Shown here: in pieces, positions 29,945 through 46,930 of the stretch
How the letters are laid out: the number at the start of each line of letters is the position of its first letter
Position numbering within the stretch: the stretch's first letter is position 1
NCBI GenBank assembly: GCA_963665325.3
Contig: OZ224045.1
Coordinates: 224,001 to 288,000, forward strand
DNA: 64,000 bases
Reading direction: 5' to 3'
DNA from: Alphaproteobacteria bacterium
GTDB taxonomy: Bacteria; Pseudomonadota; Alphaproteobacteria; Bin95
Notes under the pieces: model-generated
What the model was told of the DNA's origin: nothing
The model's database searches: none
The model's input: only the letters and a program-made list of their open reading frames with translations
Program-made: the position numbers and the translations under genes

Positions 29945-29989
29945 GTAAAGTGAATTAAATCCTGATTTGGCTCGACCCCGAAAAAAGTG

Positions 29990-30285
29990 TGGTATGCTGT
30001 CCTTGAGGGAAGAGGCGTCCGGAGCCGCTTCCCCAGATCCGAAAAAATACCCGCAAAACCCACGGGAGACGTGCGCCCTGCGCTTGCCTCGCGCGCAGGC
30101 GCAATCAGGCGCGCGAACCGCGCCGGCGCCAACGGGCGCCCCCGCCCGCGCGCAAACTGCGCGCGAAAAAAGGGCTCCCCTCCCGGACCGGCAAGGAGAC
30201 GAGGATGATCGCAACCGACCCCCGCCCCGCACTGGCGGCGACGCTCGCCGCGCGCCCGGCGCATGGAGATCATGACATGACACAT
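29990..30285 (+). repeat. Dispersed structured intergenic element, copy A (candidate ncRNA or leader)
   Basis: 30091-30141 matches the reverse complement of 46727-46777 at 50/51 nt. Also shared: ACGGGAGACGTGCGCCC, CGCGCGAAAAA(A)GGG, AAGGAGA..ATG, CATGAC. Extended -10 TGgTATGCT at 29990-29998. Confidence 0.8.
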
Positions 30286-30312
30286 CGCGCGGGATTCCCC
30301 GGCAGCAGGGGC

Positions 30313-30537
30313 CTACCCGGCCTTTGCGATCACGAAACGGTAGGGAGCGTCCGCCTCATGGGCTTCCACGATGTTGTGCCCCTCGGTCGCGCAGAAATGA
30401 CGCATGTCGATGGGCGATACCGGGTCGTCGGTCAGCACTTCCAGTCGGTCGCCGGGCGCCATCGTCTTGAGACGTTTGCGGGCCCGCAGGACCGGAATCG
30501 GGCAGCGCAGACCCGTAGCGTCCAGCACATCGGCCAT
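30313..30537 (-). CDS. tusA: Sulfur carrier TusA family protein
   Basis: LDATGLRCPIP motif, TDDP, 74 aa. Confidence 0.9.
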   Translation of the reverse strand: MADVLDATGLRCPIPVLRARKRLKTMAPGDRLEVLTDDPVSPIDMRHFCATEGHNIVEAHEADAPYRFVIAKAG

Positions 30538-30540
30538 GGG

Positions 30541-31407
30541 TCAGAACGCGTTGAGCGGAATCTTGAGATAGGCGCGGCCGTTGCTTTCCGGCTCCGGCAG
30601 GTCTCCGCCGCGCATGTTGACCTGGATCGACGGCAAAAGCAGCGCCGGCACACCGAGCTCCCTGTCCCGTTCCGTGCGCATGGCGACGAAGGCCGATTCG
30701 TCGATCCCGTCGCGCACATGCCGGTTCGCCTTGCGTTCCTCCGCCACCGTCGTTTCCCAGGCGACGGGCCGCCCGCCCGGCGCGTAGTCGTGCCCGACGA
30801 AGACGCGCGTTTCGGGCGGCAGCGAAAGGATACGCCGCGCCGAACGGTAGAGCGCGGTTGCGTCGCCGCCGGGGAAGTCGCAGCGCGCCGTGCCGAAATC
30901 CGGCATGAACACCGTGTCGCCTGTGAACGCGGCGTCGCCGATGACATAGGTGACGCAGGCGGGCGTGTGCCCGGGCGTGTGCAGCACCTGCGCTTCCACG
31001 CGTCCTACCTGGAACCGCGCTTCGTCGGCGAACAGCCAGTCGAATTGCGAACCGTCGGTCAGGAACTCCGGCGGCAGGTTGTAGATGTCCTTGAAGACCG
31101 CCTGCACATCGACGATGTGGCCGCCGATGGCCGTTCGGCCGCCGAGCGCTCCTTTCAGGAAGGCGCCGGCGCTCAGATGATCGGCATGGACATGGGTTTC
31201 GAGTATCCATTCCACGGCAAGCCCGCGTTCCCGGACCCGCTCCATGAGCTGCTCCGCGAATGCGGTTTCCGTTCGCCCGGAATAGATGTCGTAGTCGAGC
31301 ACCGGATCGACAATGGCGGCCTGGCCTGTCTCCGGGCAGGCAACGATATAGCTCACGGTCGAGCTGGCTTCGTGAAACAGCGCCTCAACCAGCGGTCTTT
31401 CGGCCAA
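30541..31407 (-). CDS. Persulfide dioxygenase-like (ETHE1/Blh) MBL-fold enzyme
   Basis: ETHVHADH, TPGHTPAC, PDFGTARCDFPGG, GHDY, LKIPLNAF. Confidence 0.88.
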   Translation of the reverse strand: MAERPLVEALFHEASSTVSYIVACPETGQAAIVDPVLDYDIYSGRTETAFAEQLMERVRERGLAVEWILETHVHADHLSAGAFLKGALGGRTAIGGHIVDVQAVFKDIYNLPPEFLTDGSQFDWLFADEARFQVGRVEAQVLHTPGHTPACVTYVIGDAAFTGDTVFMPDFGTARCDFPGGDATALYRSARRILSLPPETRVFVGHDYAPGGRPVAWETTVAEERKANRHVRDGIDESAFVAMRTERDRELGVPALLLPSIQVNMRGGDLPEPESNGRAYLKIPLNAF

Positions 31408-31471
31408 GAGTCGCCCTCCCTCGCCGGGAGACGCTATCCTATACCGGATTCACAAACGGGAGAACGCATCC

Positions 31472-32224
31472 GTGAACGCGCCGCTGATCGACTACCGCTC
31501 CGAAGACGGCATCGCAACGATTACGCTGAACCGGCCCGACAAGATGAATGCGCTATCGAACGGGCTGGTCGCCGAACTGATCCAGGCTTTCGAACGGTTG
31601 CAGGACGGCGACGACCGCGTCGCGATCCTGACCGGCGCCGGCGAGCGAGCTTTCTCGGTGGGCGCAGACCTGCGCGACCCGCCCCGCGACCCGGAACTCT
31701 GGGAATGCATGCCGGGCGTGGGCGTCATGGTGGACAAGCCGATCATCGCCGCCGTTCACGGTTACTGCGTCGGCGGGGCCTTCTGTCTGGTCGAATTCTG
31801 CGACCTCGCCGTAGCCGACGAAACCGCGGACTTCTTCTATCCCGAGGCACAAATCGGCTTCTGCGGCGGGCTGATCGCCGGGCTGGCGGCGCGTATTCCG
31901 CACAAGCTGGCCATGGAATTCATGATGACCGGGAAGCATTTCGACGCGGAGCGCGCTGCGGAGACCGGCATGGTCAACCGCGCCGTACCGAGAGGCGAGT
32001 TGATGGCCGCAGCAAGAGACTACGCGACCATCCTCAGGGACAGCGCGCCGCTCGTGCTGCGGACGGTCAAGCGTTTCGTGCGGGATACCGTGGTGGCGCG
32101 AGGGCCGTCCGAGCTCCAGGCGCTGGCGCGGCGCGAATTGTTGTCGATCAGCCGCAGCGAAGACCAGAAGGAAGGCGGGCGCGCGTTCCGCGAGAAGCGC
32201 AAGCCTGCCTTCAACGGCCGATGA
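31472..32224 (+). CDS. Enoyl-CoA hydratase/isomerase family
   Basis: LNRPDKMNAL, AFSVGADL, KPIIAAVHG, AFREKRKP. Confidence 0.9.
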   Translation: MNAPLIDYRSEDGIATITLNRPDKMNALSNGLVAELIQAFERLQDGDDRVAILTGAGERAFSVGADLRDPPRDPELWECMPGVGVMVDKPIIAAVHGYCVGGAFCLVEFCDLAVADETADFFYPEAQIGFCGGLIAGLAARIPHKLAMEFMMTGKHFDAERAAETGMVNRAVPRGELMAAARDYATILRDSAPLVLRTVKRFVRDTVVARGPSELQALARRELLSISRSEDQKEGGRAFREKRKPAFNGR

Positions 32225-33009
32225 GCGCGGAGATCGTCTTCGAGGTCAGGGACAGGGTTGGCCTCATTCGGCTGAATCGGCCAGAAAAGCTCAATGCCTT
32301 CACCAACCCGATGCTGGAGGACTGGCTGAGGGCGCTGGACGAGGCGGAGGCCCGCGAGGATGTGCGCTGCATCGTTATCACCGGCACGGGTCGCGGCTTC
32401 ACCACCGGCGGCGATGTCTCGACGATGGGCGACGGCCGGGACAACAGCCCCCGAGCGACCAAGGACCGCATTTGGGAGACGATACAGGCAGTGCCCAAAC
32501 GATTGGCGACAATGGACACGCCGACCATCGCCGCCGTCAATGGCGTCGCCACGGGCGGCGGGGTCGATGTCGCGCTCGCCTGCGATATTAGGGTCTGCGC
32601 CGCCTCGGCGCGCTTCGCCGAGACCTATGCCCGGCTCGGCCTCATCCCCGGTGCTGGCGGGGCATACTTCCTGCCCCGCACCGTAGGCACGGCCCGTGCG
32701 CTGGAGTTGCTCTGGACAGCCGAGTTCATCGATGCGGAGACGGCCGAGCGCATCGGGCTCGTCAACCATGTCTATCCCGACGAGAGCTTTCTCGATGACG
32801 CGATGGCGCTTGCGGGGCGCATTGCCGCCGCTGCGCCGCTATCTGTGCGCTACATCAAGCGCACGGTCTATCGCTCGCTCGCGACCGACATGCTGACCAG
32901 CTTCGACCTAGTGTCCTCGCACATGACCGTCGTGCGCTCGTCCGAGGACCATGTCGAGGCCGTCGCGGCCTTCCGCGAGAAGCGTGCGCCCGAGTTCAAG
33001 GGTCGGTGA
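32221..33009 (+). CDS. Enoyl-CoA hydratase/isomerase family
   Basis: C-terminal part of track ORF 30205..33009. True ATG at 32221 overlaps the upstream TGA; LNRPEKLNAF, PTIAAVNG, GLIPGAGG. Confidence 0.9.
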   Translation: MSAEIVFEVRDRVGLIRLNRPEKLNAFTNPMLEDWLRALDEAEAREDVRCIVITGTGRGFTTGGDVSTMGDGRDNSPRATKDRIWETIQAVPKRLATMDTPTIAAVNGVATGGGVDVALACDIRVCAASARFAETYARLGLIPGAGGAYFLPRTVGTARALELLWTAEFIDAETAERIGLVNHVYPDESFLDDAMALAGRIAAAAPLSVRYIKRTVYRSLATDMLTSFDLVSSHMTVVRSSEDHVEAVAAFREKRAPEFKGR

Positions 33010-33033
33010 CGGTCCTCGCATGCGGCCGCACCG

Positions 33034-33072
33034 AAACATGACAATTCATGACATCCCATGACACCTCATGAC
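33034..33072 (+). repeat. Four CATGAC direct repeats at exact 10-bp spacing
   Basis: CATGAC at 33037, 33047, 33057 and 33067. AAACATGACAATTCATGACATCCC matches the reverse complement of 46479-46502 at 23/24 nt. Confidence 0.85.
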
Positions 33073-33150
33073 GCCTCTGCCCTTCCGGCGGTCTCCGGCG
33101 CGGGGCATATTGGCCCCTCCGGTTGCCGCTTCCATCAGGAGAACTGAACC

Positions 33151-33858
33151 TTGTCCAAGTTGACCGCAGAAGATCTCGCCGCGCTGCGCGCCCTCGACAC
33201 CCCCACGATCTGCAACGCGCTGGAGGTCGTGGCCGGCGGCCGGCTGAACACCGGCTTCACCGTCGAGCCGCTTGTCTGCCCGTTCCCAGACCTGCCGCCC
33301 ATCGTCGGCTATGCGCGCACCGGCACGATACGCTCGCAATTCCCGAGTGCCGTCGCGGGTGACGAGGCAACGAAGTTGCGCGTGGCCTATTACGACTATG
33401 TCGCCCATGGCGGTCCGACGCCGCAAATCGTGGTGCTGCAGGACCTGGACGGACCGAGGGCCGGGTTCGGCGCGTTCTGGGGCGAGGTCAACTCCAACAT
33501 CCACAAGGCGCTGGGGTGCCTCGGCGTCGTCACCGATGGCTGCATCCGCGACATCCCCGACTGGGCGGACGGGTTCCAGGCCATTGCCGGGTCGATCAAG
33601 CCTGCTCATGCCCATGTCCATGCCGTGGATTTCGGCGGGCAGGTGAGCGTGGCCGGCATGGTCGTCAACAGCGGCGACCTGGTGCATGCCGATCAACACG
33701 GCGCGGCGGTTATTCCCATCGACCAGGCCCGCGAGGTGCCGAAGGCGGCGGCCGAAGTCGCGGCGAAGGAAAAAATCGTGCTGGATGTCTGCCGCGGCGC
33801 CGGCTTCACCTTCGAGAAGCTGAAACGCGCCATGGTAGGCCCCGAGGACGTGCACTAA
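33151..33858 (+). CDS. RraA/HMG aldolase family protein
   Basis: DTPTICNALE, VGYART, WGEV, VTDGCIRD, GDLVHADQHG. Confidence 0.88.
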   Translation: MSKLTAEDLAALRALDTPTICNALEVVAGGRLNTGFTVEPLVCPFPDLPPIVGYARTGTIRSQFPSAVAGDEATKLRVAYYDYVAHGGPTPQIVVLQDLDGPRAGFGAFWGEVNSNIHKALGCLGVVTDGCIRDIPDWADGFQAIAGSIKPAHAHVHAVDFGGQVSVAGMVVNSGDLVHADQHGAAVIPIDQAREVPKAAAEVAAKEKIVLDVCRGAGFTFEKLKRAMVGPEDVH

Positions 33859-33872
33859 GCGCGGCTGCCTTC

Positions 33873-34391
33873 ATGCGCCTGCCCCTCCTGCCCCTGGCCG
33901 CCATGACCGGGCTGGTCGCACTCTCCAATGTGCTCGTCCAGTATCCGCTCAGCGACTGGCTGACCTGGGGCGCGTTCACCTACCCCGTCTGCTTCCTGGT
34001 CACGGACCTGACCAACCGGATGCATGGCGCGGCGACGGCGCGGCGGGTCGTCTATATCGGCTTCGCCGCCGCCGTGGTCCTGTCCATCGTGCTGGCGACG
34101 CCGCGCATCGCCGTCGCCTCGGGCCTGGCGTTCCTGGTGGCCCAGCTTCTGGACGTCTCCATCTTCGACCGGATGCGGCGACGGATCTGGTGGCAGGCGC
34201 CGCTGGTCTCCTCGATGCTTGGCTCGGCAGTCGATACCGCGCTGTTCTTCTCCATTGCCTTCTACGGCACGGAACTGCCCTGGATAACGCTCGGGATCGG
34301 CGACTTCCTCTGGAAAGCCGCTTTCGCACTCGCCATGCTGATCCCGTTCCGGCTGTTCATGCCGATGACGGGCGGCCGGTTGGCTCAATAG
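33873..34391 (+). CDS. Queuosine precursor transporter (VUT/YhhQ family)
   Basis: SNVLVQYP, TWGAFTYP..FLVTD, AQLLD, DTALFF. Confidence 0.85.
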   Translation: MRLPLLPLAAMTGLVALSNVLVQYPLSDWLTWGAFTYPVCFLVTDLTNRMHGAATARRVVYIGFAAAVVLSIVLATPRIAVASGLAFLVAQLLDVSIFDRMRRRIWWQAPLVSSMLGSAVDTALFFSIAFYGTELPWITLGIGDFLWKAAFALAMLIPFRLFMPMTGGRLAQ

Positions 34392-35140
34392 TTGGAGACG
34401 CCGCCCTCCGCCGGGATGACCGCGCCATTCACCATGCGCGACTCGTCCGACGCCAGGAAGAGCCCGATATTGGCGATGTCCTCCGGCTGCCCGATGCTGA
34501 AGGGATACTGGTTGAAGACGGCGAATTGCCCCTCGTTCACGCGTTCCCGGTCGGGCGGCAGGCGCGCGAGGATCCGTTCGGTCAGGATGAGGCCGGGGCA
34601 GATGACATTGGCGCGCACGCCGTCGTCGGAATAGGAGCCGGCGAGCGAGCGGGTGAAGGAGATCAGCCCGCCCTTCGCAGCCGAATAGACATGCGACGGG
34701 ACGAAGCCGCGCAGCGCCGCGACCGACGAGATGTTGATGACCGCGCCGCCGCCGCCCGCGATCATGTGGGGCACGACATGCCGGCACATCAGCATCGGCC
34801 CCTTGAGGTCGAGCGGGATCGTGCGGTCCCAGACTTCGAGATCGACCTCGTGGATCTTCGTGTCCTCGGGGACCGACCCGCCGGCGCAGTTGAACAGGAT
34901 GTCGATGCGTCCGAACGCGGCCATCGCCGCCGCCGCGCAGGCCGCAGCCGAGGCGTCGTCGGTCACATCGGTGCGGTGAAAGACGGCGCCGGTCTCGGCC
35001 GCCGTCGCGGAACCGGTCGCTTCGTCGATCTCGGCCGCCATCACCTTCGCGCCCTCGCGGATAAAGATACCGGTGGCCGCTTTGGCGATGCCGGTTCCCG
35101 CGCCGGTAATCACCGCGATCTTGCCTTCCAGGCGTCCCAT
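34385..35140 (-). CDS. SDR family oxidoreductase (tandem paralog 2)
   Basis: TGAGTGIA, NCAG, YSAAK. Confidence 0.92.
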   Translation of the reverse strand: MGRLEGKIAVITGAGTGIAKAATGIFIREGAKVMAAEIDEATGSATAAETGAVFHRTDVTDDASAAACAAAAMAAFGRIDILFNCAGGSVPEDTKIHEVDLEVWDRTIPLDLKGPMLMCRHVVPHMIAGGGGAVINISSVAALRGFVPSHVYSAAKGGLISFTRSLAGSYSDDGVRANVICPGLILTERILARLPPDRERVNEGQFAVFNQYPFSIGQPEDIANIGLFLASDESRMVNGAVIPAEGGVSNY

Positions 35141-35152
35141 GTGTTGCGCTCC

Positions 35153-35911
35153 TCAATAAGCGGAGATACCGCCCTCGGCAGGGATCACCGCACCGTTCAC
35201 CATGCGCGACTCGTCGGATGCAAGGAAGAGCCCGATATTGGCAATGTCCTCCGGCTGGCCGACGCCGAATGGATAGCTCTCGAATGTGGAGACCGACCCC
35301 TCGCGCGGCCGCTCCTCGTTCGGCTGGCGGTAGCGGGCGCGGATGCGCTCGGTCAGGATAAGGCCGGGGCAGATGACATTGGCGCGCACGCCTTCGTCGG
35401 AATAGGAGCCGGCGAGCGAGCGGGTGAAGGAAATCAAGCCACCCTTTGCAGCCGAATAGATGTGCGCCGGATGGTTGCCGCGCAACGCTACGACCGAGGA
35501 AATATTGATGACGGCCCCGCCGCCGCCCGCGACCATGTGAGGCACGACATGACGGCACATCAGCATCGGCCCCTTGAGGTCGAGCGGGATCGTGCGGTCC
35601 CAGACCTCGAGATCGACCTCGTGGATCTTCGTGTCCTCGACGACCGATCCGCCGGCGCAGTTGAACAGGATGTCGATGCGCCCGAACTCCGCCATTGCCG
35701 CCGCCGCACAGGCCGCCGCCGAGACATCGTCGGTCACGTCGGTGCGGTGGAACGCAGCCCCGGCGTCCGCCGCCGTTGCGGCTCCGGCCGCCTCGTCAAT
35801 CTCGGCCACCATCACCTTCGCCCCCTCGCGGATGAAGATTCCGGTAGCCACTCTTGCGATCCCGGACCCGGCGCCGGTAATGATTGCGACCTTCCCTTCG
35901 AGGCGTCCCAT
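35153..35911 (-). CDS. SDR family oxidoreductase (tandem paralog 1)
   Basis: MGRLEGKVAIITGAGSGIA, YSAAK; close paralog of its neighbour. Confidence 0.92.
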   Translation of the reverse strand: MGRLEGKVAIITGAGSGIARVATGIFIREGAKVMVAEIDEAAGAATAADAGAAFHRTDVTDDVSAAACAAAAMAEFGRIDILFNCAGGSVVEDTKIHEVDLEVWDRTIPLDLKGPMLMCRHVVPHMVAGGGGAVINISSVVALRGNHPAHIYSAAKGGLISFTRSLAGSYSDEGVRANVICPGLILTERIRARYRQPNEERPREGSVSTFESYPFGVGQPEDIANIGLFLASDESRMVNGAVIPAEGGISAY

Positions 35912-35951
35912 CTCTTGCCTTCCTTCCGATCCCGGCGCTAGGGTCGCGCCC

Positions 35952-37598
35952 ATGGCACAAGAGCTTATCAATCCCTGCGGCATCTACCAGCGCAATAGCG
36001 GCGCGCTGGCGCCGCGCCGCTCTCTGGAGGACGTCAAGGTCGTCGGCCTGTTCTCCAATCTCAAGGCCAATGCGGACCGCTATCTGGAAGAGTTGTCGGA
36101 GCGGCTGAAGGCCCGCTATCCGCATCTGGAGTTCGAACTCTTCCAGAAGATCGCGAGCGAGCCCGCCAACTTTTCCCAGCATTGGCTCGACCGGGTCCAC
36201 GCGGTGGCCGCAGCTTTCGGGGACTGAGGCTCCTGCACGTCGTGGTGTATCCATGACGCGATCAAGCTTGAAGAGCGCGGCATTCCCGTAGCCGTCACCT
36301 GCACGGACGAGTTTTTCGCCCTTGGCAAGGCGGAGGCCGAATGCCTCGGCATGGCCGGCCTGCCGATTGCCGTCGTACCGCATCCGGTGGCGAAACTGCC
36401 TCCGGCCGGTGTGGCGGAGATCGCCGACGAGGTGATAGACCAGATTGTCCATATGCTGGAGGCCGAGGCCGGCGAACTGGCGGAGGAGTGCCGCAACCGC
36501 CCGCTGCCGAAACGCGGGCGAATGCGCTATCGCTCGCTGTTCGAGGGCGATTTCAACGCGCCCGGTGCGCCGGAACGGATTTCCGGCCCCGACTCGCCGG
36601 AGGCGTTGAACCGCGTCTTCTACCAGCGCGGCTGGACGGACGGCCTGCCTTTCGTGGCGCCGACGCCCGACCGCTGGGATGCCATGCTGGGCGGACACGA
36701 TCCCGAAGAGGAAATTGGCTTCATCGAACCGCGCCTTGGTCTTGCGACGGTCGGAAAGGTCGCCGCCAACGCCGTGATGGCCGGGGCGACGCCGGCCATG
36801 ATGCCGACGATCCTGGCCGCAACCCGCGCCATGACCGCCGAGCGGCTGAACCTGAAGGCGCTACAATCGACGACTCATCCTTGCGGCCTGCTGACCGTTG
36901 TACACGGGCCGATGGTGGAGGAACTTGACGTTGCATCGGGTACCAATTGCATGGGTCAAGGTGCCCATGCCAATGCCGCGATCGGACGTGCTGTCCGGCT
37001 GGTGTTGAACAATATTGGGGGCGCGCAGCCTGCCGTCCTCGACCGTGCCACAATGGGAACGCCCGCCAAATACAGCTACTGCTTCGCGGAGAACTTGGAA
37101 GCCAATCCCTGGGCCGCCTTCCATACGGAGCGCGGCTTCGATGCAGAGCAGAATGCCGTCACACTCGGCGGCGTCGAGGGGCCGCACAATGTCAACGACC
37201 ACTACAGCGAAACGGCGGAAGACGTTCTGTTGACGATCTGCGGCACCATGGCCACACCCGGCTGCAACAACTCCTACTTCCACGGCGAATACCTGGTCGT
37301 GATCGGCCCCGAACATGCCGAGGTCATCGCGCGCGAGGGCTGGTCGAAGGAGGATGTCGAGCGCTTTATCATCGAGCGGGCGATCATTCCGCGCTGGCAT
37401 ATCGGTAAGGCGCAGATGGCGCTCTATCGCCAGCAGGTCCCGGAACGGTTCGTCGGCCCAGACGGTCGGGACGGTGTGCGCATCGTGAGCGAGCGGGAGC
37501 AACTCATGGTCATGGTCGCCGGCGGGGCCGGACGCCATTCCTGCGTCATCCCGTCCTTCGGGAGCACGCTCTCCGTCACCGAGGCGATCCGCGACTAG
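35952..37598 (+). CDS. UGSC-type selenoprotein (Sec at TGA 36225-36227) fused to a conserved ~370-aa domain; 548 aa
   Basis: Reading through TGA gives [25 protein letters not shown], in frame with track ORF 36351..37598; SECIS-like hairpin at 36238-36258. Confidence 0.85.
36238..36258 (+). promoter_or_regulatory. Putative bacterial SECIS hairpin
   Basis: CGTCGTGG-tgtat-CCATGACG (8 bp, one G-U pair), starting 10 nt after the in-frame TGA, with GU in the loop. Confidence 0.65.
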
Positions 37599-37602
37599 CC
37601 GC

Positions 37603-38583
37603 TCATCCGCGCAGGTCCGTGAGCAGCGGCATGACGTTGCTGGCGAAGCGTTCGATCTGCTCCGAGCGCCGGTCGTAGGGACCTACGAGATCGACCACGA
37701 CATGCTTGGCGCCCGCCCGATGGAAATCGCGGATGCGCTCGGCCACCTGCTCGCCGGTTCCGAGCGCCGCATAGCGCGCGGCTGCCTTGCGAAAGTCCAT
37801 GGCATAGCGTCGCGACAGCGACTCGGTCGCGATATCGAGTGCGCGCTCATAGCTGTCGTCGATGCGTGCGAACAGTAGATGGCCGGTGCCGAACGGCACC
37901 TCGCCGCGTCCTGCCGCCTCGGCCGCCTGCCCTATTTGGTCCAGCGCCCGCGCGAACATATCGGGCGTCACCACATAAGAGACATAGCCATTCGCGAGCC
38001 GGCCCGCGCGCCGCAAAGCTGGCGGACGCCGTCCGCCGCACCAGATCGGCGGGCCGCCCGGTTGCCTCGGCGGCGGCAGCATCGGCACATCCTCGAAGGA
38101 GAAATAGCGGCCGGAGTAGCTTGCCGGCCTGCCCGACCAGAGCGCGCGAATCGCTTCGATGCACTCGGTCAAGCGGCGCCCGCGCTCCTCGCGAGGCACG
38201 CCGCATACCTCGTATTCCTTGGGGAACTCACCGCCGACACCGACGCCGAAGATAAACCGCCCCTCCGTCAGGTGGTCGAGCGTAGCGGTCATCTTCGCGA
38301 CCGGGCCCGGATGGCGAAGGGGCAGGAGATAGAAGCCCGTACCGAAGACCAGTCGCCGGCTCGCCACTGCCGCCTGAGCAATCATGAGCAAGGGATCGAG
38401 GAAGGGGATCGCGAAGGAGACATGGTCGCCCAACCAGATCTCGTCGAAGCCCTTCGCGTCCACGTCCTCGACAAACGACACCAGGTCATCGATCCGCGGC
38501 TGCCACGGGCCGGTCGGCGAGTCGCCCTCACGGTGGATCGTCTGGATTCCGAGTTTCAGTCCCTCTTCGAGCCGGAGCGCCAT
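37603..38583 (-). CDS. LLM class flavin-dependent oxidoreductase
   Basis: WLGDHV, LPLRHP, GRFIFGVGVG, PPIWCGG. Confidence 0.9.
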   Translation of the reverse strand: MALRLEEGLKLGIQTIHREGDSPTGPWQPRIDDLVSFVEDVDAKGFDEIWLGDHVSFAIPFLDPLLMIAQAAVASRRLVFGTGFYLLPLRHPGPVAKMTATLDHLTEGRFIFGVGVGGEFPKEYEVCGVPREERGRRLTECIEAIRALWSGRPASYSGRYFSFEDVPMLPPPRQPGGPPIWCGGRRPPALRRAGRLANGYVSYVVTPDMFARALDQIGQAAEAAGRGEVPFGTGHLLFARIDDSYERALDIATESLSRRYAMDFRKAAARYAALGTGEQVAERIRDFHRAGAKHVVVDLVGPYDRRSEQIERFASNVMPLLTDLRG

Positions 38584-38650
38584 GCGCCTCCCTCCCCCGT
38601 GGCTGGCGTTTTGGGGTATAGAGCGTCATCCGCAGGGGAGACGCAATGCG

Positions 38651-39973
38651 ATGAACGGGTTTGCATCGCTGGTGGACGACCGTGCCGGCGAGGGCGTCTT
38701 TCGGGTGGACCGGGCGGTCTATACCGACCCGGACGTCTTTGCCGCCGAGATCGAGGCGATCTTCGAGGGCAACTGGATTTATCTCGCGCATGAGAGCCAG
38801 ATCGCGGCGCCGGGCGACTACCTTGCCGTCTGGATGGGCCGCCAGCCGGTGATCGTCAACCGGCGGGCTGACGGCTCTGTTGGCGCCATGCTGAACGCCT
38901 GCGCCCATCGCGGCGCCCGCCTGACGCCCACCCGGCAGGGCAAGGCGACGACCTTCGTGTGCCGCTATCACGGCTGGTGCTACGATACCTTCGGCGCCTG
39001 CACGAAGATCAAGGACGAGCGCACCTCTGCATTGCCGCCCGGCGCATCGCGCGCGGATTTCGGTCTCAAGACGGTGCCATTGGTCGAGAGCTATAAGGGC
39101 TTTGTCTTCGGCTCGCTCAAACCGGACGCGCCGCCGCTCGCCGAACATCTGGGCGAGGCGCTCCCGGTCATCGACCTGCTCGCGGACCAGTCGCCCGACG
39201 GCATGGAGGTTGTTCCGGGGCAGGCAAGCTATGTCGTGGACGGGAACTGGAAGCTCCAGACCGAAAACGGCGTGGACGGTTACCACGTCTCCACCGTGCA
39301 CCGGAACTTCGTCACCACCATCCAGCGCCGCGATCTGAAATCGCAGGCAAGCGGTACTAAGCGGACGGACAACAGCCGCTTCATGGGCGCGACCCGCAAT
39401 GGCTGTTACGACCTCGGCAATGGCCACAACCTGATATGGACCGAACGTGGGATGCCGGAATCGGCACCGCTCTGGGAGGCGAAGGACCGTTTGCTGCCGC
39501 TTGTCGGCGAACGCAAATGGACATGGATGTGCGCGCGGGGCCGTAACCTGCTGCTCTTTCCCAATGTGTTTCTCATGGATCAGTCCTCAACGCAGATTCG
39601 CGTGATCCGTCCGCTGTCGCCGAGCCGCACCGAAATCACGGTCTATTGCATCGCGCCGAAGGGAGAGAGTCGAGCGGCGCGCACGGCGCGGATGGCGAAG
39701 TTCCGTGACTTCTTCCTGATGAGCGGGTTGGCGACGCCCGACGATTCGGCAGCGCTGGAAGATACGCAAGCTGGCTGCGAAGGCCGTCTGGACCGCTGGA
39801 ACGACCTCTCGCGCGGGCTCTCCGCGATGTGCGACGGCGGCGACGATGCGGCCAGCGACCTCGGCATCCACCCGGTTTCCAGCAGCCCGCGCTGGGACCA
39901 CGAAACGCTCTATCACGGGCAGTATCGCCAATGGCGCCGCCTTATGGCGCGTGCTGACAGGACTGCCGCGTGA
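38651..39973 (+). CDS. Rieske aromatic ring-hydroxylating dioxygenase alpha subunit (benzoate/anthranilate-like)
   Basis: NACAHRG..CRYHGW Rieske site; NWKLQTENGVDGYHVSTVH; GLATPDD. Start set at ATG 38651. Confidence 0.92.
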   Translation: MNGFASLVDDRAGEGVFRVDRAVYTDPDVFAAEIEAIFEGNWIYLAHESQIAAPGDYLAVWMGRQPVIVNRRADGSVGAMLNACAHRGARLTPTRQGKATTFVCRYHGWCYDTFGACTKIKDERTSALPPGASRADFGLKTVPLVESYKGFVFGSLKPDAPPLAEHLGEALPVIDLLADQSPDGMEVVPGQASYVVDGNWKLQTENGVDGYHVSTVHRNFVTTIQRRDLKSQASGTKRTDNSRFMGATRNGCYDLGNGHNLIWTERGMPESAPLWEAKDRLLPLVGERKWTWMCARGRNLLLFPNVFLMDQSSTQIRVIRPLSPSRTEITVYCIAPKGESRAARTARMAKFRDFFLMSGLATPDDSAALEDTQAGCEGRLDRWNDLSRGLSAMCDGGDDAASDLGIHPVSSSPRWDHETLYHGQYRQWRRLMARADRTAA

Positions 39974-40470
39974 AGATCGACCCGGAACTGCAACTCGCCA
40001 TCGAGCGGGTCATCCATCTCGACGCATGGCTTCTGGATGAACGCCGCTTCGAGGACTGGCTGGCGCTGTTCACCGAAGACGTGACGTTCTGGGTTCCCGC
40101 CTGGACCGGCGAGGAAACTCTGGCGCGCGATCCCGAGACCGAGCTTGCGCTCATCTATATCCGGGGCAAGGCGGGGCTCGACGACCGCGTGTTCCGCATC
40201 GGCACGCGGGATAGCTACGCCTCTCTTCCCTTGCCGCGCTCGTGCCATGTGGTGGGCAATGTGCTGATCGTTTCGGCCGACGCCGGGGAAGTCGAAGCCG
40301 TCGCCTCCTGGACGGTGCATCAATATGCCTCGCTCAAGGGCGCGCGCGTGCATGGCGGGCGCTACCGCTATCGGCTCCGTCTCGAAGACGGCGAATGGCG
40401 GATCGCCGCCAAGACCGTGACCTTTCTGAACGACGGGATCGATGTAGCCTTGGATATCTACAATGTCTGA
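39970..40470 (+). CDS. Ring-hydroxylating dioxygenase beta subunit
   Basis: LLDERRFEDWL, FWVPAW, LDDRVFRI, LDIYNV. Confidence 0.9.
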   Translation: MKIDPELQLAIERVIHLDAWLLDERRFEDWLALFTEDVTFWVPAWTGEETLARDPETELALIYIRGKAGLDDRVFRIGTRDSYASLPLPRSCHVVGNVLIVSADAGEVEAVASWTVHQYASLKGARVHGGRYRYRLRLEDGEWRIAAKTVTFLNDGIDVALDIYNV

Positions 40471-41035
40471 ACCGAACACGGCGCCGAAGGGCCTCCGTTT
40501 TGCAGTGGATTACGGCCCGCTACTGGTCTTCTTCGTCACCTATTACGCCGCGGGCATCATGTGGGCGACGGCGGCGATCATGGCGGCCACCACGATCATG
40601 CTGGGTTTCTCCTGGTACTTCGAGCGGCGGTTGGCTCCGCTGCCTCTGGTGACAGCGGGCATCGTTGCAGTGTTCGGCGGGCTGACGCTGGTGTTTGCGG
40701 ACGAGACTTTCATCAAGATGAAGCCGACCATCGTGAAGGCCCTCATGGCAGCGGTCCTGCTGGGAGGCCTCGCATTCGGCAAGCCACTGCTGAAATACGT
40801 CTTCGCCGCCGTCTGGAAGATCGACGACCGGGGCTGGCGGACGCTGACGCTGCGATTCGGGTTGTTTTTTCTCGCAATGGCGGTGCTGAACGAGATCGTC
40901 TGGCGCACGCAGTCCACCGATTTCTGGGTCAACTACAAGCTGTTCGGCACGATCGGCCTGACATTCGCCTTTTCGCTGACGCAGATACCGGTCTTCCGCC
41001 GCCACTGGGTCGAAGAACCGGCGGAAAGCGCGTAG
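40463..41035 (+). CDS. yciB: Inner membrane protein YciB/IspZ
   Basis: DYGPLLVFF, VFGGLTL, FIKMKPTI, LNEIVWR, WVNYKLFG. Confidence 0.92.
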   Translation: MSEPNTAPKGLRFAVDYGPLLVFFVTYYAAGIMWATAAIMAATTIMLGFSWYFERRLAPLPLVTAGIVAVFGGLTLVFADETFIKMKPTIVKALMAAVLLGGLAFGKPLLKYVFAAVWKIDDRGWRTLTLRFGLFFLAMAVLNEIVWRTQSTDFWVNYKLFGTIGLTFAFSLTQIPVFRRHWVEEPAESA

Positions 41036-41046
41036 CCCCTCCCGTC

Positions 41047-42378
41047 TCAGGCGGCCCGCTGCGCTGTTTCAAGCAGGTCGTTAACGACACGCTCCAGGTG
41101 GTTGAGCGTGTTGCATTCGCGCAAGAGATCACAATAGGGCCGGTAGCGGCGCATCTCGCTGTCTCCGGTGCCCCAGAGCGGCGGCGGTTCCGGATTGAGC
41201 CAGATGAGCCTCTTGCAGCGCTCGTGCATCTCTTTCAGATACTCCGCCTTGGGGTCGGTATTGTTCGACCGGGCGTCGCCGAGGAAGATGATCGTGGTGT
41301 TCCGGTCCACGTCGGCCAGAAAACTCTCGCGGAAATTGGTAAGCGATTCGCCGTAATCCGTCGGCATGTAGCCGACCTTCTGCATCACCTTGTCGGCGGC
41401 TTCGTCCGCAATGTTGTCCTTGAAGTGCTCCGAGACCTCGATGAGGTAGCCGGAAAAGGCAAAGCTCCGAATGTCATGCAGGAGCTCGTGCAGCTCATAG
41501 AGGAACTGCAGCAGGAACCGCGCAACGCTCGCCACGGAACCGCTGACATCGCAGATCGCCATGACCCGGGGCCGGTCGAGCTTGCGTTTCTTCCATTCCA
41601 GCTCGAACAGCACGCCGTCATTGCCGTAATTGCGGCGCATGGTGCGGCGGATGTCGAGCTGGCCCCGGTTCTTCATCTTGCGCCGCCGGGAATGGAGCGC
41701 CACCAGCCGGCGGCAGATCTTCTCCACGATGCGGCGCATCTGCTCGCGGTCGCGACGGTCGAGATTATCGAGCCGGGACCGCCGCAGACGGTCCTCGCGA
41801 AGCTCCTGCGAAGTCGCCGCGCCCTGCAGCGAAAGCTGCTGCTCGACATAGTTCCGCACCTGCTCGAACAGCCAGGCACGGCTTTCCTGCAAGGCCTGTC
41901 CGGCGCTGCCGCCGCCGCCCTGCCCGCCCATCGCCTGGATCTGCGCATCCACGCCTTCGACGCCCATCTGCTGGAGAACGCGCTGGGTATAGAGGCCGCG
42001 CTGGGTGAAAAAGCGGATGTTCTCGACGCCGACCTCAACTGCGGCCTCCTGCATGGCGAGCGCCAGCGCGGCGCGGTCGCCGGCTTCCAGCTTGGCGAGC
42101 AGGTCTCCGCCGTCAGCCTGTTCGTTCTCCTCCGTCTCCTCGCCGTCCCGGCGGTCATGAAAGCTCTCGAAGGCGAAGAATTCATCGAAGATACGGGTGA
42201 AGCCGGTCTTTTCCTCGGGCGTCTTGGCCAGCGCCATGGCAAGGGCGTCGTGCAGGCTTTGACGGTCCGACCAGCCCATCAGCCGCGCCGTTTCCATTGC
42301 ATCGAGGGTCTCGGCGACCGAAACGCGGATATCGGCCCCACGCAGGGCGGAGAGGAAGTTGGTAAAGGTGCGCTCCAT
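41047..42378 (-). CDS. VWA domain protein, CoxE-like
   Basis: CDVSGSV MIDAS, TDYG, LGDARSN, WLNPE..WGTGDS. Start set at ATG 42378. Confidence 0.88.
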   Translation of the reverse strand: MERTFTNFLSALRGADIRVSVAETLDAMETARLMGWSDRQSLHDALAMALAKTPEEKTGFTRIFDEFFAFESFHDRRDGEETEENEQADGGDLLAKLEAGDRAALALAMQEAAVEVGVENIRFFTQRGLYTQRVLQQMGVEGVDAQIQAMGGQGGGGSAGQALQESRAWLFEQVRNYVEQQLSLQGAATSQELREDRLRRSRLDNLDRRDREQMRRIVEKICRRLVALHSRRRKMKNRGQLDIRRTMRRNYGNDGVLFELEWKKRKLDRPRVMAICDVSGSVASVARFLLQFLYELHELLHDIRSFAFSGYLIEVSEHFKDNIADEAADKVMQKVGYMPTDYGESLTNFRESFLADVDRNTTIIFLGDARSNNTDPKAEYLKEMHERCKRLIWLNPEPPPLWGTGDSEMRRYRPYCDLLRECNTLNHLERVVNDLLETAQRAA

Positions 42379-43334
42379 CAGGCACGCGCGCCGTCGGCCT
42401 TCTTCGCCTGGCGGGTAAACCCGTAGAGGTCCGCATCGACCGACTGGATGTCTTCCTCGAATTTGAGGAAAACATTGAGCGTTTCCCGAACCATGTCCGC
42501 TTCGAGTTCGTCGGCATGCAGGAGCAGCAGCACGCGCGCCCAGTCGATGGATTCGCTGACGGAGGGATGCTTCTTCAGGTCCAGTTCGCGCACCTGCTGC
42601 ACGAAGGAAACGAGCTGGTATTTGAGGTTGCGGGGAATCTCCGGAATGCGGGCCTGGATGATCTCCCGCTCCAGCCGTGCATCGGGAAACGGCACATAGA
42701 GATGCAGGCATCGCCGCTTGAGCGCGTCGCTCATCTCGCGCGTATTGTTGGAGGTGAGGAACACGACAGGGCGCCGCTCCGCCTTGATCGTCCCGAGTTC
42801 CGGAATCGAGACCTGGAATTCGGAGAGGATTTCCAGAAGGAAGGCTTCGAATTCGTGGTCCGACTTGTCCACTTCATCGATCAGCAACACCGCACCGCCG
42901 GGTTCGCGCAGTGCTTTCAGTAAGGGGCGCGGCGCCAGGAAACGCTCTGAGAAAAAGACATCCGCATGGGCATGCAGCCGGTCCATGGACTCTTTGATTC
43001 CCTGCGCCTCGCCCAGCACTTCTCCCAGCTTGTCCCGCAGAATCTGTGTGTAGAGAAGTTGCTTGGCGTAGCGCCATTCGTACAGCGCCTTGGACTCGTC
43101 CAGACCCTCGTAACACTGCAGCCGGATGAGCGGCAGGTCCAGATAGGCTGCCGTCGTGTTCGCAAGCTCCGTCTTGCCGACGCCGGCAGGGCCCTCGACG
43201 AGAACAGGCTTGCCGAGATGGCCCGCAACATAGATCGCCGTTGCAATCTGGCGCGAACAGATATAGCCGAGTTCCGCGTAGCCTTCGCGGACGCGTTCGA
43301 TGGACTCCAGCTTTTCCAATTGTTCAGGGGTCAT
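42378..43334 (-). CDS. MoxR family AAA+ ATPase, CoxD-like
   Basis: EGPAGVGKT, RLQCYEGLDE, LLIDEVDK, SDALKRRC. Confidence 0.92.
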   Translation of the reverse strand: MTPEQLEKLESIERVREGYAELGYICSRQIATAIYVAGHLGKPVLVEGPAGVGKTELANTTAAYLDLPLIRLQCYEGLDESKALYEWRYAKQLLYTQILRDKLGEVLGEAQGIKESMDRLHAHADVFFSERFLAPRPLLKALREPGGAVLLIDEVDKSDHEFEAFLLEILSEFQVSIPELGTIKAERRPVVFLTSNNTREMSDALKRRCLHLYVPFPDARLEREIIQARIPEIPRNLKYQLVSFVQQVRELDLKKHPSVSESIDWARVLLLLHADELEADMVRETLNVFLKFEEDIQSVDADLYGFTRQAKKADGARA

Positions 43335-43459
43335 ATCTTGTCCGGAGAAGAGAGAGCGGCGGATATTGCCCGCTGCTTCGGGTCGATACAACCGATCCAA
43401 GTCGTGTGAAACCGCCGCATGACGCGCGCTTGCTCATATCCCGAATTGCGCCTGCTTTC

Positions 43460-44332
43460 ATGAGGCCGGACAAGCCGGGGCGCGGCATCGCCCTCATGAT
43501 CCTCGCTATGGCGATGCTGGCCGGCCTCGACGCCATCGGCAAACTCGCGACCCAGACCTATCCGGTGTCGCAGGTGCTGTTCCTGCGCTTCGCCATGTTC
43601 CTCGCTTTCGCGCTGGCTCTCGCTGCCCGGCGCGGCGGCATCCGGGCGAGATTGCGCACGCGGCACGTTCGCCTCCAGGTTTTCCGGTCCCTGGTTCTGG
43701 CGCTTGAGATGTGGCTGTTCGTCTATGCGATCTCGAAGCTGGCGCTGGCGGATGTCCACGCGGTTGCGGCCGTTTCGCCTCTGATCGCAACCGCGCTTGC
43801 CGTGCCGATTCTGCGCGAGCGGGTGGGTCCATGGCGCTGGGCCGCAGTGGCGGCAGGCTTCGTCGGCACGCTGATCGTGATACGGCCCGGTATCGGCGTA
43901 TTCGACCCGCTGACCATCGTGCCGCTCGTCGCGGCCTTCGGGTGGGCCTACTACCAGATACTGCTTCGGCGCCTGCGGGAGGAACCTCCCGAGACGACGC
44001 TGCTCTACACCGCGATCGTCGGCGCGGCAGTCTGGAGCGCGTCCGTGCCTTTCGCCTGGCATCCCCCGGACGCTTATGGATGGGCGCTCCTCGGCGCGGT
44101 CGGGGCGATCGGAATTGTCACGCACGGCCTCCTCATTCTTGCAGCGCGGGAGGCCCCGGCATCGGTACTGCAACCGTTCACCTACACCCTTCTGGTCTGG
44201 GCAACGCTTTGGGGATGGGTCGGGTTCGGCGCCTTTCCCGATTCCTGGACGATTGTCGGGGCATCTGTCGTCGTAGCCAGCGGGCTCGTCGCAATCTGGC
44301 GGGAACACCGGCATGCCGCGCGCCATCTGTAA
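43460..44332 (+). CDS. DMT/EamA family transporter
   Basis: About ten TM segments; ILRERVG..RW, ASVLQPF.Y. Confidence 0.88.
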   Translation: MRPDKPGRGIALMILAMAMLAGLDAIGKLATQTYPVSQVLFLRFAMFLAFALALAARRGGIRARLRTRHVRLQVFRSLVLALEMWLFVYAISKLALADVHAVAAVSPLIATALAVPILRERVGPWRWAAVAAGFVGTLIVIRPGIGVFDPLTIVPLVAAFGWAYYQILLRRLREEPPETTLLYTAIVGAAVWSASVPFAWHPPDAYGWALLGAVGAIGIVTHGLLILAAREAPASVLQPFTYTLLVWATLWGWVGFGAFPDSWTIVGASVVVASGLVAIWREHRHAARHL

Positions 44333-44410
44333 CGATCCGGGGAAGCCTGCCATACCGGCCGGGCCCGGCAATTCGTGCATAATGCAGGCAACGCAAATCG
44401 GGGGCTTTCC

Positions 44411-45421
44411 ATGCAGTTCGTTCTGGCAATTCGGGGCCAGTTTCCACCCGGAGACGACATGAATGTGCGTTTCGAAGAGCTGATGGAGCAGGTCCGTCTG
44501 GCGAAACGGCTCGGCTTCAACGGCATCGCCAAGTCCTGCCACTACAGCTCCTCGCCCTGGCAGGAAATCCAGCAGATTCCATTCCTCGCCCGCGCGGCGG
44601 CGGAGGCCCCCGGCCTCACCTTCCTCACCTCCATCGTGCTGCTGCCCCTGCACAAACCGCTGGAGATTGCCGAGCAGGCCGCGGCGCTCGACCTGTTCAC
44701 CGGTGGGCGTTTCATCCTCGGCGTCGGCATCGGCTACCGCGATGTCGAGTTCAAGGCGTTCGGCACCAGCCAGAAGGAGCGCGTGCCGCGGCTGGTGGAG
44801 AATATCCAGGCGATCAGGCGTTTGTGGACCGAAGATGCGGTGACGATGAAGGGCTCGCATTTCGAGCTCGACGGCGCGGTCTGCTCGCTGAAGCCCAGTC
44901 GCCCGCCGCCTATCTGGATCGGGGCCAATGCCGATCCGGCTATCCGCCGGGCAGCCCATATTGCCGACAGCTGGATGATCAACCCGCACAACCGTATCGA
45001 CACGATCCTGCGCCAGATCGAGGTTTACAAGCGGGCCTTGGACGAAGCGGGCAAGCCCTGGCCGGAAACATTGCCGCTGGCGCGGGAGATGTTCGTGGCC
45101 CGCACCCGCGCCGAGGCGATTCGGCTCGCCCGTCCCTATCTCGAAGCCAAATACAAGGCGTATGACAGTTGGGGGCAAGGCGCCGCAATGCCGGAAGGCG
45201 ACAACGATCTCGGCCAGGCGTTCGACGATCTCGCCCGCGACCGGTTCCTGTTCGGCTCGGCCGACGAGGTGGCCGAGCAGATCGTGGGCATGATGCGGGC
45301 GACCGGCGCCAACCAACTGTCCTGCCCCATCCAGTGGCCGGGAATGCCCCATGAGGTTGTCGTCGAACAGATGCATGTGATGGCGGAAGAGGTCGTGCCG
45401 CTTGTGAAGCAGGGACTGTAG
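44411..45421 (+). CDS. LLM class flavin-dependent oxidoreductase
   Basis: LLPLHKPLEIAE, GRFILGVGIGYR, PPIWIGAN. Confidence 0.9.
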   Translation: MQFVLAIRGQFPPGDDMNVRFEELMEQVRLAKRLGFNGIAKSCHYSSSPWQEIQQIPFLARAAAEAPGLTFLTSIVLLPLHKPLEIAEQAAALDLFTGGRFILGVGIGYRDVEFKAFGTSQKERVPRLVENIQAIRRLWTEDAVTMKGSHFELDGAVCSLKPSRPPPIWIGANADPAIRRAAHIADSWMINPHNRIDTILRQIEVYKRALDEAGKPWPETLPLAREMFVARTRAEAIRLARPYLEAKYKAYDSWGQGAAMPEGDNDLGQAFDDLARDRFLFGSADEVAEQIVGMMRATGANQLSCPIQWPGMPHEVVVEQMHVMAEEVVPLVKQGL

Positions 45422-45424
45422 GCC

Positions 45425-46441
45425 ATGCAATTCGGGTTGATGACGCGCGGCCAGTACGAGCTTGGCGACGACATGCAGCGCCGCTTCGCGGAGCTTGCAG
45501 AGCAGGTGCGGCTGGCGGACCGCCTCGGGTTTGCGTCCCTTACCAAGGGCTCCCACTACAGCGCCTGGCCTTATCAGGACTTCCAGCAGCTGCCCTATCT
45601 CACCCGGATGATGGCGGAGGCTCCCAATCTGCGGCTCAATGCCGGCATCATCCTGCTGCCGCTGCACAAGCCGCTCGATCTGGCCGAGCAATTGGCCACC
45701 ATGGATGTGATGTCGGGCGGGCGCATGATCGCGGGTGTCGGCCTCGGCTATCGAGATGTGGAGTTCGACGGCTTTGGTACGAACCGCCCGGAACGGATTC
45801 GCCGCTTCGAGGAGAACCTTGAGGCGATGAAACGCCTCTGGACGGAAGACAAAGTCACCATGGAGGGCACGCATTTCGCGCTCCGCGAAGCGTCCTGCCC
45901 CACCAAGCCGGTCCAGAAGCCGCATCCGCCGATCTGGATCGGCGCCAATGCCGACTCCGCCATCCGCCGGGCGGCCCGACTCGGAACCTGCTGGTACATC
46001 AATCCCCACAACCGGATTTCGACGATCCGCGAACAAATGGATGTTTATCGCCGTGCGCTTGACGAACTCGACAAGCCTATGCCCGAGGAGTTGCCGATCC
46101 GCCGCGAGGTGTTCGTCGCCGACAGCCGCGAGGAGGCGATCCGGCTCTGCGGCCCGCATCTGGCAGGCAAATACGCCGTCTATGCCTCCTGGGGCCAGGA
46201 CAAGGCGATGCCGGCTGGGGATTCCGATCTGACCGCTGCCTTCGAGGACCTCGCCCGCGATCGCTTCCTCGTCGGCTCCGCGGACGAAGTGGCAGAGCAG
46301 ATGATCGCGCTGGCGCGCGCCACCGGCGTCAACCACATCGTAATGAGCATCCAGTGGTCCGGCGTGCCGCAAAGCCTTGCGTTGGAGACCTTGCAACGCC
46401 TTGCCGAGGACGTGTTCCCCAAGGTCCGCCAGGGGCTGTAA
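45425..46441 (+). CDS. LLM class flavin-dependent oxidoreductase (tandem paralog)
   Basis: LLPLHKPLDLAE, GVGLGYR, PPIWIGAN. Confidence 0.9.
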   Translation: MQFGLMTRGQYELGDDMQRRFAELAEQVRLADRLGFASLTKGSHYSAWPYQDFQQLPYLTRMMAEAPNLRLNAGIILLPLHKPLDLAEQLATMDVMSGGRMIAGVGLGYRDVEFDGFGTNRPERIRRFEENLEAMKRLWTEDKVTMEGTHFALREASCPTKPVQKPHPPIWIGANADSAIRRAARLGTCWYINPHNRISTIREQMDVYRRALDELDKPMPEELPIRREVFVADSREEAIRLCGPHLAGKYAVYASWGQDKAMPAGDSDLTAAFEDLARDRFLVGSADEVAEQMIALARATGVNHIVMSIQWSGVPQSLALETLQRLAEDVFPKVRQGL

Positions 46442-46478
46442 CGGCCGCCGCGGGGCCTCATCCCCGGGGAGGGGGTGC

Positions 46479-46930
46479 GGGATGTCATGAAATGTCATGT
46501 TTTGCAGATTTCCCTGTTTTGTCCTGCCTGCACCAGCCTTTCCTTCCGCTCCCGTTTCGTTCCGACCGCCAGGGAACCCGGGGGGCGTCATGAAATGTCA
46601 TGTTTTGTCGTGTTCCGGGGCATCGCCTGCCTTTCCATGCCGGGTCTCTCCTGCATCGTTTCTCCTTCCCGTTCCCCGCCTCCCGGCAGCGGGACCCTTT
46701 TTCGCGCGTATCGCGCGCGGGGGGGCGGGCGCCCGTTGGCGCCGGCGCGGTTTGCGCGCCTGATTGCGCCTGCGCGCGCCCGTGCGCGTGACCCCGGGCG
46801 CGGGGCGCACGTCTCCCGTCGGTTTCTCAAGGGTCTTTTCGCGCCGGCGCGAACCGGGGGAAGAGGCGGCCCCGCGCGGATGCCGCTCCTTTTCTCCCGC
46901 CTTATATCGGAACGAGCTTCCCGATGTCAA
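46479..46930 (-). repeat. Dispersed structured intergenic element, copy B, with two CATGAC repeat pairs
   Basis: Inverted homolog of copy A. GTCATGAAATGTCATGTTTT occurs at 46484 and 46587; AAGGAGA RBS and ATG (46656) on the minus strand. Confidence 0.8.
46901..46930 (-). promoter_or_regulatory. Near-consensus sigma70 promoter pointing into element copy B
   Basis: Minus strand TTGACA (46930-46925)-18nt-TATAAG (46906-46901), with an AT-rich upstream tract. Confidence 0.6.

Follow-up and report, generated by a model that had tools for sequence, protein, structure and literature searches.

Two intergenic repeats in an alphaproteobacterial genome as remnants of a dispersed small-terminase cassette, with a T7-like particle cluster as its candidate partner

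We analysed a 64,000-nt stretch of DNA from an alphaproteobacterium of the Bin95 lineage (contig OZ224045.1, positions 224,001 to 288,000 of the forward strand), called here the window, in which two copies of an unannotated intergenic element, copy A (+) and copy B (-), form the longest inverted pair. In our best explanation, neither A nor B has kept a complete gene; both are remnants of a small-terminase cassette dispersed through the genome, copy A being a truncated representative of its class II, and the cassette is tied to a T7-like particle cluster fixed in the host. To this whole chain, including the mechanism proposed below, we give a probability of about one half. The cassette itself is a real element, undescribed so far as our searches reach; no published description of it was found, subscription journals lying outside the coverage. 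A previous reading of the letters alone (the sequence-only reading) had noticed the likeness of A and B and considered a multicopy structured RNA, a cis-regulatory leader or a non-autonomous mobile element. The likeness is genuine; A and B are not a pair of RNA-gene copies.

Instead of two copies, the genome contains about 68, as a profile search yielded 74 hits, 68 of them above 90 bits. For 67 of 69 cores, a CATGACA array was found no more than 4 kb away on the strand of the core (some of these distances are large owing to intervening insertion sequences (IS), and copy A is paired in this count with a distant solo array). Altogether 89 arrays were detected, vs 5 in one shuffled genome. The copies are spread over four of the five contigs with a median gap of 67 kb, and no bias of their strand with respect to GC skew was found. 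According to our own heuristic gene calls, 44 of 62 copies point in the same direction as the gene upstream of them (44% expected, p 3e-5). Both A and B face a convergent gene, as had been pointed out; as a rule this does not hold, being true of 23 of the 62 copies, while 39 precede a co-directional gene. The core was present in 13 of 16 congeners, in none of eight other genomes of the same family, and its pattern gave 0 hits in viral contigs and phage records. The three-unit array pattern was found in two of 401 genomes of the class, namely this genome (G000) and G391, which belongs to another family. The exact array word occurred in 99 stretches, and the 80 listed were all titled Alphaproteobacteria or Rhodospirillaceae metagenome-assembled genomes.

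From 5' to 3', the cassette consists of a promoter-like head, a hairpin (P1), a GC-rich core, a ribosome-binding site (RBS) with variable cargo, and the CATGACA array. In the family consensus of 67 copies, TTTGTTC and GAAWWAATTC are located about 35 nt and about 20 nt, respectively, upstream of TTGAC; the unit hence starts at TTTGTTC and not at the promoter, as had been assumed. An extended -10-like TGnTAGAAT follows mostly 15-16 nt past the TTGACN hexamer, a spacing shorter than canonical. Arrays comprise two to four CATGACA units with a 10-bp period, and the open reading frame (ORF) of the cargo usually stops inside them. Most copies are 300-600 nt long; the longest reach about 1.3 kb, and the complete cassettes of this size carry one ORF. 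Mini-copies with promoter-like words, a terminator-like hairpin with a T-run and an array, lacking the core, were observed at G000 C3:66323, C1:2517000, C3:760700 and C1:661600, one of them directly after a tRNA-like sequence. In the cargo region of some cassettes (for example G000 C4:243058 and C3:1198752), a palindromic unit of about 40 nt is repeated in tandem.

Complete copies encode one of two small-terminase-type genes, either class I, with an SF6-like helix-turn-helix (HTH), or class II. Class I is represented in this genome by five intact ORFs of 326 aa. They matched PF03592 (Terminase_2) with E 2e-12 and 48.3 bits (cut-off 26.1), and the structural model aligned with the DNA-binding domain of the SF6 small terminase at rmsd 1.5 over 56 columns (E 0.03); judged by this match and this fold, class I is a small terminase of the Terminase_2 type. 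Its dN/dS was 0.16-0.31 in 10 pairs. Among 8000 scored candidates 356 homologues were recognized, hundreds of them full-length, and many of the distant ones terminate in array-encoded residues. Of the 17 genus genomes, 12 contain PF03592 matches, from 2 to 12 per genome. Viral contigs yielded no close relative, the best reaching 31-32% over the HTH. In G391, five class I matches and 21 arrays were accompanied by LexA-type boxes, the GC-rich core not being found. The arrays there stand behind TTGACA + GAAC-N7-GAAC promoters, and the class I homologue contains the variant units CCTGACA and CCTTACA. G391 also has a partial match to the T7-like large terminase of the cluster described below.

The same type of box was found in the genome under study. 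A perfect GAAC-N7-GAAC is located upstream of lexA; the boxes of recA, uvrA and ssb have one mismatch each, and recN has none of these boxes. Perfect boxes precede four of the five class I ORFs, and seven of the 67 copies overall contain one (0.57 expected).

Class II, with 10 recognizable starts in this genome including that of copy A, is unrelated to class I and has no HTH. Of its members, 32 of 36 matched phrog_31793 (P 85% and E 5.8e-6 by HH-align). Twelve alphaproteobacterial loci of this phrog family were inspected (G064 excluded); in 10 of them a terminase-like ORF of 400-500 aa comes next, five with Pfam terminase hits. Since phrog_31793 is itself unannotated, the small-terminase name rests on this gene position; its kinship with the gene that stands immediately before the large terminase places class II among the small-terminase-type proteins as well. 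No relative of class II was found in viral contigs and phage records, and the matches retrieved from the ESM Atlas, all under 0.9, were set aside as leads only. Median dN/dS was 0.48 in the core of class II (13 of 16 loci usable) and 0.67 in the rest. By their dN/dS values, both cargo genes are under purifying selection. The cargo proteins have long acidic C-terminal extensions.

The candidate partner is a single-copy T7-like head-tail cluster (G000 C4:512586-525672) which contains genes for a repressor, a T7-type portal, capsid, tail tube proteins, an internal virion protein, holins and a large terminase, the last interrupted by a DDE transposase; a small terminase is lacking. In five congeners the cluster is syntenic and stop-free, with capsid identity of 90-96%. 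Of the 17 genus genomes, 15 have one copy each of the matching large terminase. The best phage matches have 25-30% identity. Two probes, the island integrase and PolA, found no match in C4:495-545 kb, which is a narrow test. As a conserved single-copy head-tail cluster in which these probes found neither integrase nor polymerase, it is a candidate gene transfer agent (GTA). The terminase of a Mu-like prophage was also considered as the partner and rejected, with only two of 17 genomes passing PF03237; this profile fails to detect the T7-like large terminase. A Mu-like morphogenesis region with its own large terminase is located at G000 C1:462000-490000.

The tie between cassette and cluster comes from the small-terminase slot. 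In the cassette-free congener G014, a 93-aa class II gene lies between holin and large terminase (E 3.8e-23). Its product, which lacks the acidic extensions, shares 52-62% identity with 13 cassette class II proteins and falls into one clade with them (support 100/100). G014 is the deepest branch among eight genus genomes in the midpoint-rooted terminase tree, and a slot gene is also present in G017, from another genus of the same family. It is absent in all 12 cassette-bearing genomes with a readable slot (G000, G004, G005, G006, G008, G009, G010, G011, G012, G013, G015 and G016). In these sequences, class II thus groups with the slot gene of the cluster, and the slot is empty wherever cassettes are present and the slot can be read.

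Within the window, the head of copy A (29952-29998, +) comprises a GAAWWAATTC-type motif (29952-29961), a weak -35-like TCGACC (29972-29977) and an extended -10-like TGGTATGCT (29990-29998), and is a putative promoter. It is followed by P1 (30007-30033), the sole helix with family-level pairing support, and by the GC-rich core (30062-30174), conserved in sequence with no covariation found, which includes a 17-nt box (30062-30078), a 31-nt near-invariant block (30099-30129) and a CG-rich hairpin with an A-run and GGG (30147-30174). The RBS, an ATG at 30205 and a truncated start resembling class II small terminase (model positions 1-19) occupy 30193-30270, and an eroded CATGAC array, CATGACATGACA, ends the copy (30271-30282). 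Copy B lies on the opposite strand. Its head (46901-46968, -) contains the left-end TTTGTTC (46962-46968), GAATTATTTC (46941-46950), TTGACA (46925-46930) and a -10-like TATAAG (46901-46906); P1 is at 46862-46890, and the core (46695-46819) contains CGCGATAC, the word used in other copies as attachment core by an integrative element. The RBS and a 22-codon remnant ORF (46588-46667), which ends within the first array of three heptamers with a 10-bp period (46586-46612), are followed by a second array (46483-46499), an internal duplication of the 3' end.

The promoter-like words, the box ACGGGAGACGTGCGCCC shared by A and B (30062-30078 and 46803-46819), the block with 50 of 51 positions identical (30091-30141 vs 46727-46777), AAGGAGA with its ATG (30193-30207 and 46654-46667) and the CATGAC repeats had all been located correctly by the sequence-only reading. 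The peptides, set aside there as unrelated, deserve a different assessment: the one of copy A starting MIATDPRP represents residues 1-19 of the class II protein (E 1.3e-5). The end of the copy B peptide, KHDIS and a stop, is the array translated in frame. The sequence-only reading had proposed to look for copies followed by a long ORF, such as one for a transposase; those found are of small-terminase type, and no transposase was seen among the cargo ORFs.

Copy A is flanked upstream by a co-directional gene for a pyridoxal-dependent decarboxylase (28517-29944, +) and downstream by the convergent tusA (30313-30537, -), copy B upstream by a co-directional DUF498 gene (47038-47418, -) and downstream by a convergent gene for a luciferase-like monooxygenase (45425-46441, +); all four lie outside the cassettes. 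A solo four-unit CATGACA array of the same family, with neither head nor core, follows an enoyl-CoA hydratase gene (33037-33073, +). The window also contains a tandem duplication (34384-34861 / 35152-35632) with a period of about 770 nt and 76-90% identity, probably two paralogous genes.

The claim that selection acts on RNA or single-stranded DNA structure and not on protein was mostly not borne out. Pairing support, modest in strength, was obtained for P1 only: of its 11 pairs 8.97 are retained, compared with 8.69 +/- 0.07 after half-swapping (maximum of 300 = 9.01), the copies not being independent. Its changes include A-U/G-C exchanges, and G-U prevails over A-C in the inner columns on the sense strand (52 to 18). 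As for the core, no column pair reached E<1 in 128 distinct cores against our own tree-based null, a test of limited power. Stem changes in the core are mostly wobble-compatible, the 3' hairpins vary freely, and GGCGCC-N4-GGCGCC, described as invariant, is perfect in just 11 of the 128. Folding of 40 genome copies was barely better than that of shuffles (mean z -0.59 on the plus and -0.85 on the minus strand; -2.29 for copy A and -0.52 for copy B). The lack of covariation and this weak folding suggest that the core is conserved as sequence, perhaps as a protein site or a recombination anchor. Consensus folding of the core gave nothing significant, and a peptide starting at the core GTG was rejected, as all three frames occur (63/30/22 of 115). 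Rfam recognized only a tRNA in the window; the best E value was 6.9 for copy A and 0.1 for copy B, with every score far under gathering, and the sequence-only reading had likewise recognized no known RNA family. Assembled contigs of four RNA runs covered the flanking genes in a scattered manner. In run X9, one contig overlapped the beginning of copy A and went on into the upstream DNA of another copy, and a second contig started at 30254. No contig from runs X1-X3 lay over copy A.

A non-autonomous mobile element, which the sequence-only reading had listed among its options, agrees with the number of copies, the filled and empty orthologous sites and the lack of an Rfam family. At the site of copy A, G006 is empty in a near-precise manner, another subtype is present in G004 and G010, and the subtype of this genome recurs in G002, G005, G007, G008 and G011. 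Both flanks of 31 foreign array loci could be mapped here; of these loci, five were filled, seven empty (four distinct sites), five held other DNA and 14 were at synteny breaks. Class I copies from three congeners (20 tried, 15 with a mapped downstream flank) fell in seven cases at sites which have an array here, too. Modules are mosaic, with rank correlations of 0.10-0.27 between them. From the filled and empty sites, the subtype swaps and the mosaic modules, it follows that cassettes have been gained, lost and exchanged in content at orthologous sites.

The ends of the cassette are less regular. In recent copies, the head is common back to TTGTTC, at times with extra flank of variable length; the left word TTTGTTC is sharp and at a fixed position. 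The left TTTGTTC and the right ..GACA have only a loose TGT..ACA likeness, and conservation runs past the last heptamer. The check for target-site duplications proposed earlier came out negative: none beyond shuffled pairs were found in 67 copies (k=3-8), although short ones could have decayed, as the copies are old. No mover was recognized among the cargo ORFs, a genome-wide search for one not having been made. Retro-mobility is disfavoured, since the inserted DNA includes the promoter and DNA upstream of the transcription start. An integrative element of 40 kb (G000 C1:777140-817140) lies inside a cassette copy with CGCGATAC of the core as overlap, and a near-identical second one lies in another cassette across the C3/C4 contig ends (C4:1-14300 with C3:1325260-1338693). 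It encodes a tyrosine integrase, and its other ORFs look by eye like relaxase, type I restriction and glycosyltransferase genes. This element was rejected as the mover, because its insertion point lies within the core and the two halves of ordinary copies flank it. IS-like insertions were seen in or just after arrays at G000 C1:1379147, C1:1708796, C1:1918668, C1:1283634, C4:114054 and C4:319933, so that arrays may be IS hot spots.

In the mechanism that we propose, the small terminase of the cluster would have been relocated into a multiplying cassette, the promoter of which would express it in trans, partly under LexA control. Class II, having no HTH, would serve the large terminase of the cluster, and the HTH of class I would bind the 10-bp-phased CATGACA arrays, at which packaging would then preferentially start. 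Like other copies without a gene, A and B would contribute a promoter and a start site at most. Cassette-ended DNA delivered to other cells would recombine into other copies, and such recombination of packaged ends might explain why copies are mosaic and their ends ragged, and why target duplications are lacking. This chain does not account for the step creating a new cassette site. The most far-reaching form of the idea, of which we are doubtful and which we put forward tentatively, is a split GTA, with capsid and motor at one host locus and the DNA-selecting subunit on dozens of minimal self-spreading cassettes.

Several observations weigh against the chain. Cassettes are kept in G007, where the cluster is internally deleted, in G002, where no large-terminase match was found, and in G000 with its split large terminase. 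G003 possesses an intact-looking cluster with neither slot gene nor any cassette, for which reason loss of the slot gene may predate the cassettes or not depend on them, and G097 has the large terminase without a recognizable slot gene or arrays. As the genomes are kin, the slot pattern possibly reflects one evolutionary event. Packaging by the Caulobacter GTA is reported to proceed with no known small subunit (PMC11841831), which weakens the need for one; together with G003, this indicates that the small subunit is possibly dispensable. As for the cargo, the dN/dS of class II is just moderately low, a fold search with the class II model gave no match, and G009 contains arrays without an intact class I gene. 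Finally, most cassette copies have no perfect LexA-type box, and such a box precedes the cluster in two of five genomes, being imperfect in three of the five promoters.

Persistence of cassettes beside broken clusters would also be compatible with a promoter-bearing, non-autonomous element similar to miniature inverted-repeat transposable elements (MITEs), in which some recombinase reads TTTGTTC and the arrays, and the small terminases are captured passengers with no packaging role today. The sharp left word, the near-precise empty site in G006 and the four distinct empty sites in this genome would fit. We nevertheless consider it unlikely, because target-site duplications, clear inverted ends and a cassette-borne transposase were not found in the copies and cargo ORFs inspected, because the flanks common to recent copies vary in length, and because passengers would not predict two unrelated cargos which are both of small-terminase type and under selection. 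The same persistence, the acidic extensions absent from the slot protein and the spread of copies over the contigs might instead point to a cargo working without particles. It could inhibit the packaging motors of incoming phages, or it could occupy about 80 dispersed arrays and there organise DNA or regulate its own expression. Site turnover, swapping between species and very variable gene number are unlike a fixed chromosome system, however, and there is no direct evidence of defence, which makes this explanation distinctly unlikely.

That the RNA is the selected unit, as a multicopy structured non-coding RNA or a cis-regulatory leader, has in our opinion a slim chance. The promoter-like head conserved in 67 copies, the pairing and sense-strand wobble bias of P1 and the wobble-compatible changes in the core stem would speak for it, but the core shows neither covariation nor strong folding, the 3' hairpins vary freely, G391 has gene and arrays without the core, and the copying takes in DNA upstream of the transcription start. 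Duplications that decay neutrally and stay alike through gene conversion alone are already disfavoured and highly improbable: while most copies are eroded remnants, modules are mosaic and different subtypes occupy the same site, the purifying selection on the cargo, the hundreds of full-length homologues and the contrast of empty and filled sites would not be expected from decay.

Comparison with known systems helps to place the small-terminase cassette. The SPP1/SF6 small terminase G1P acts with a pac site. Cassette class I resembles it in combining an HTH with a helical oligomerisation region and in having phased direct repeats at or in the gene; it differs in standing outside a phage with no adjacent large terminase, in its length of about 326 aa and in being multicopy in the chromosome. 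Satellites such as Staphylococcus aureus pathogenicity islands and other phage-inducible chromosomal islands (SaPI/PICI) possess their own LexA-regulated TerS and pac and redirect the motor of a helper. The cassette is likewise a non-phage element supplying a small terminase, plausibly SOS-linked, yet it measures 0.3-1.4 kb, is present in about 70 copies, and no integrase, replication genes or att site of its own were found; its helper would be a host-fixed cluster that lost its small terminase. With one ORF and neither integrase nor replication module in complete cassettes, it falls outside the PICI. MITEs and Correia elements are short, high-copy, intergenic, lineage-restricted and promoter-bearing. 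The cassette shares all of these traits and has filled and empty sites; unlike them, it has no target duplication, clear terminal inverted repeats or cognate transposase that we could find, and its long form encodes small-terminase-type proteins. By analogy, the cassette would work most like a satellite small terminase with a pac site, acting on a GTA-like helper.

As for GTAs themselves, the RcGTA type is characterized by a siphovirus-like gene set and a GafA-type regulator. DUF6456, which we take to be the GafA domain, was found in none of the 17 genus genomes, and the portal and tail families are T7-like, which sets the cluster apart from that type. RcGTA, CcGTA and BaGTA (PMC11841831, 10.1101/2022.06.10.494566, PMC3610622) resemble the cluster in being single-copy, vertically kept head-tail clusters without a replication module, and known GTA small terminases have no DNA-binding domain (PMC11841831), just as the slot small terminase has no HTH. 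In contrast, the cluster described here, a candidate from gene content, has a portal, tail and large terminase of T7/podovirus type, and its small terminase would reside outside, in many self-promoted copies with repeat arrays and a second, HTH-bearing type. Compared by gene order, it differs from the BaGTA table of PMC3610622. How packaging starts are chosen and how GTAs are protected from takeover by selfish DNA are named as open questions in PMC11841831.

In this lineage, the small terminase of a GTA-like cluster appears to have passed to a multicopy element that bears candidate start sites, so that the cassettes may steer or exploit a host gene-transfer machine. If this is true, the cassettes would represent a kind of bacterial mobile element without its own recombinase. 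The read ends of particle DNA would then be predicted to fall at the approximately 80 mapped arrays, and the class I HTH to bind CATGACA. Should the GTA indeed be split, each cassette would plant a packaging start, and cassettes, spreading without transposase or integrase of their own, would both parasitise and aim chromosome-wide transfer. Whatever the mechanism, the synteny breaks at 14 of the 31 loci and the attachment site of the 40-kb element suggest that cassettes may shape these genomes.

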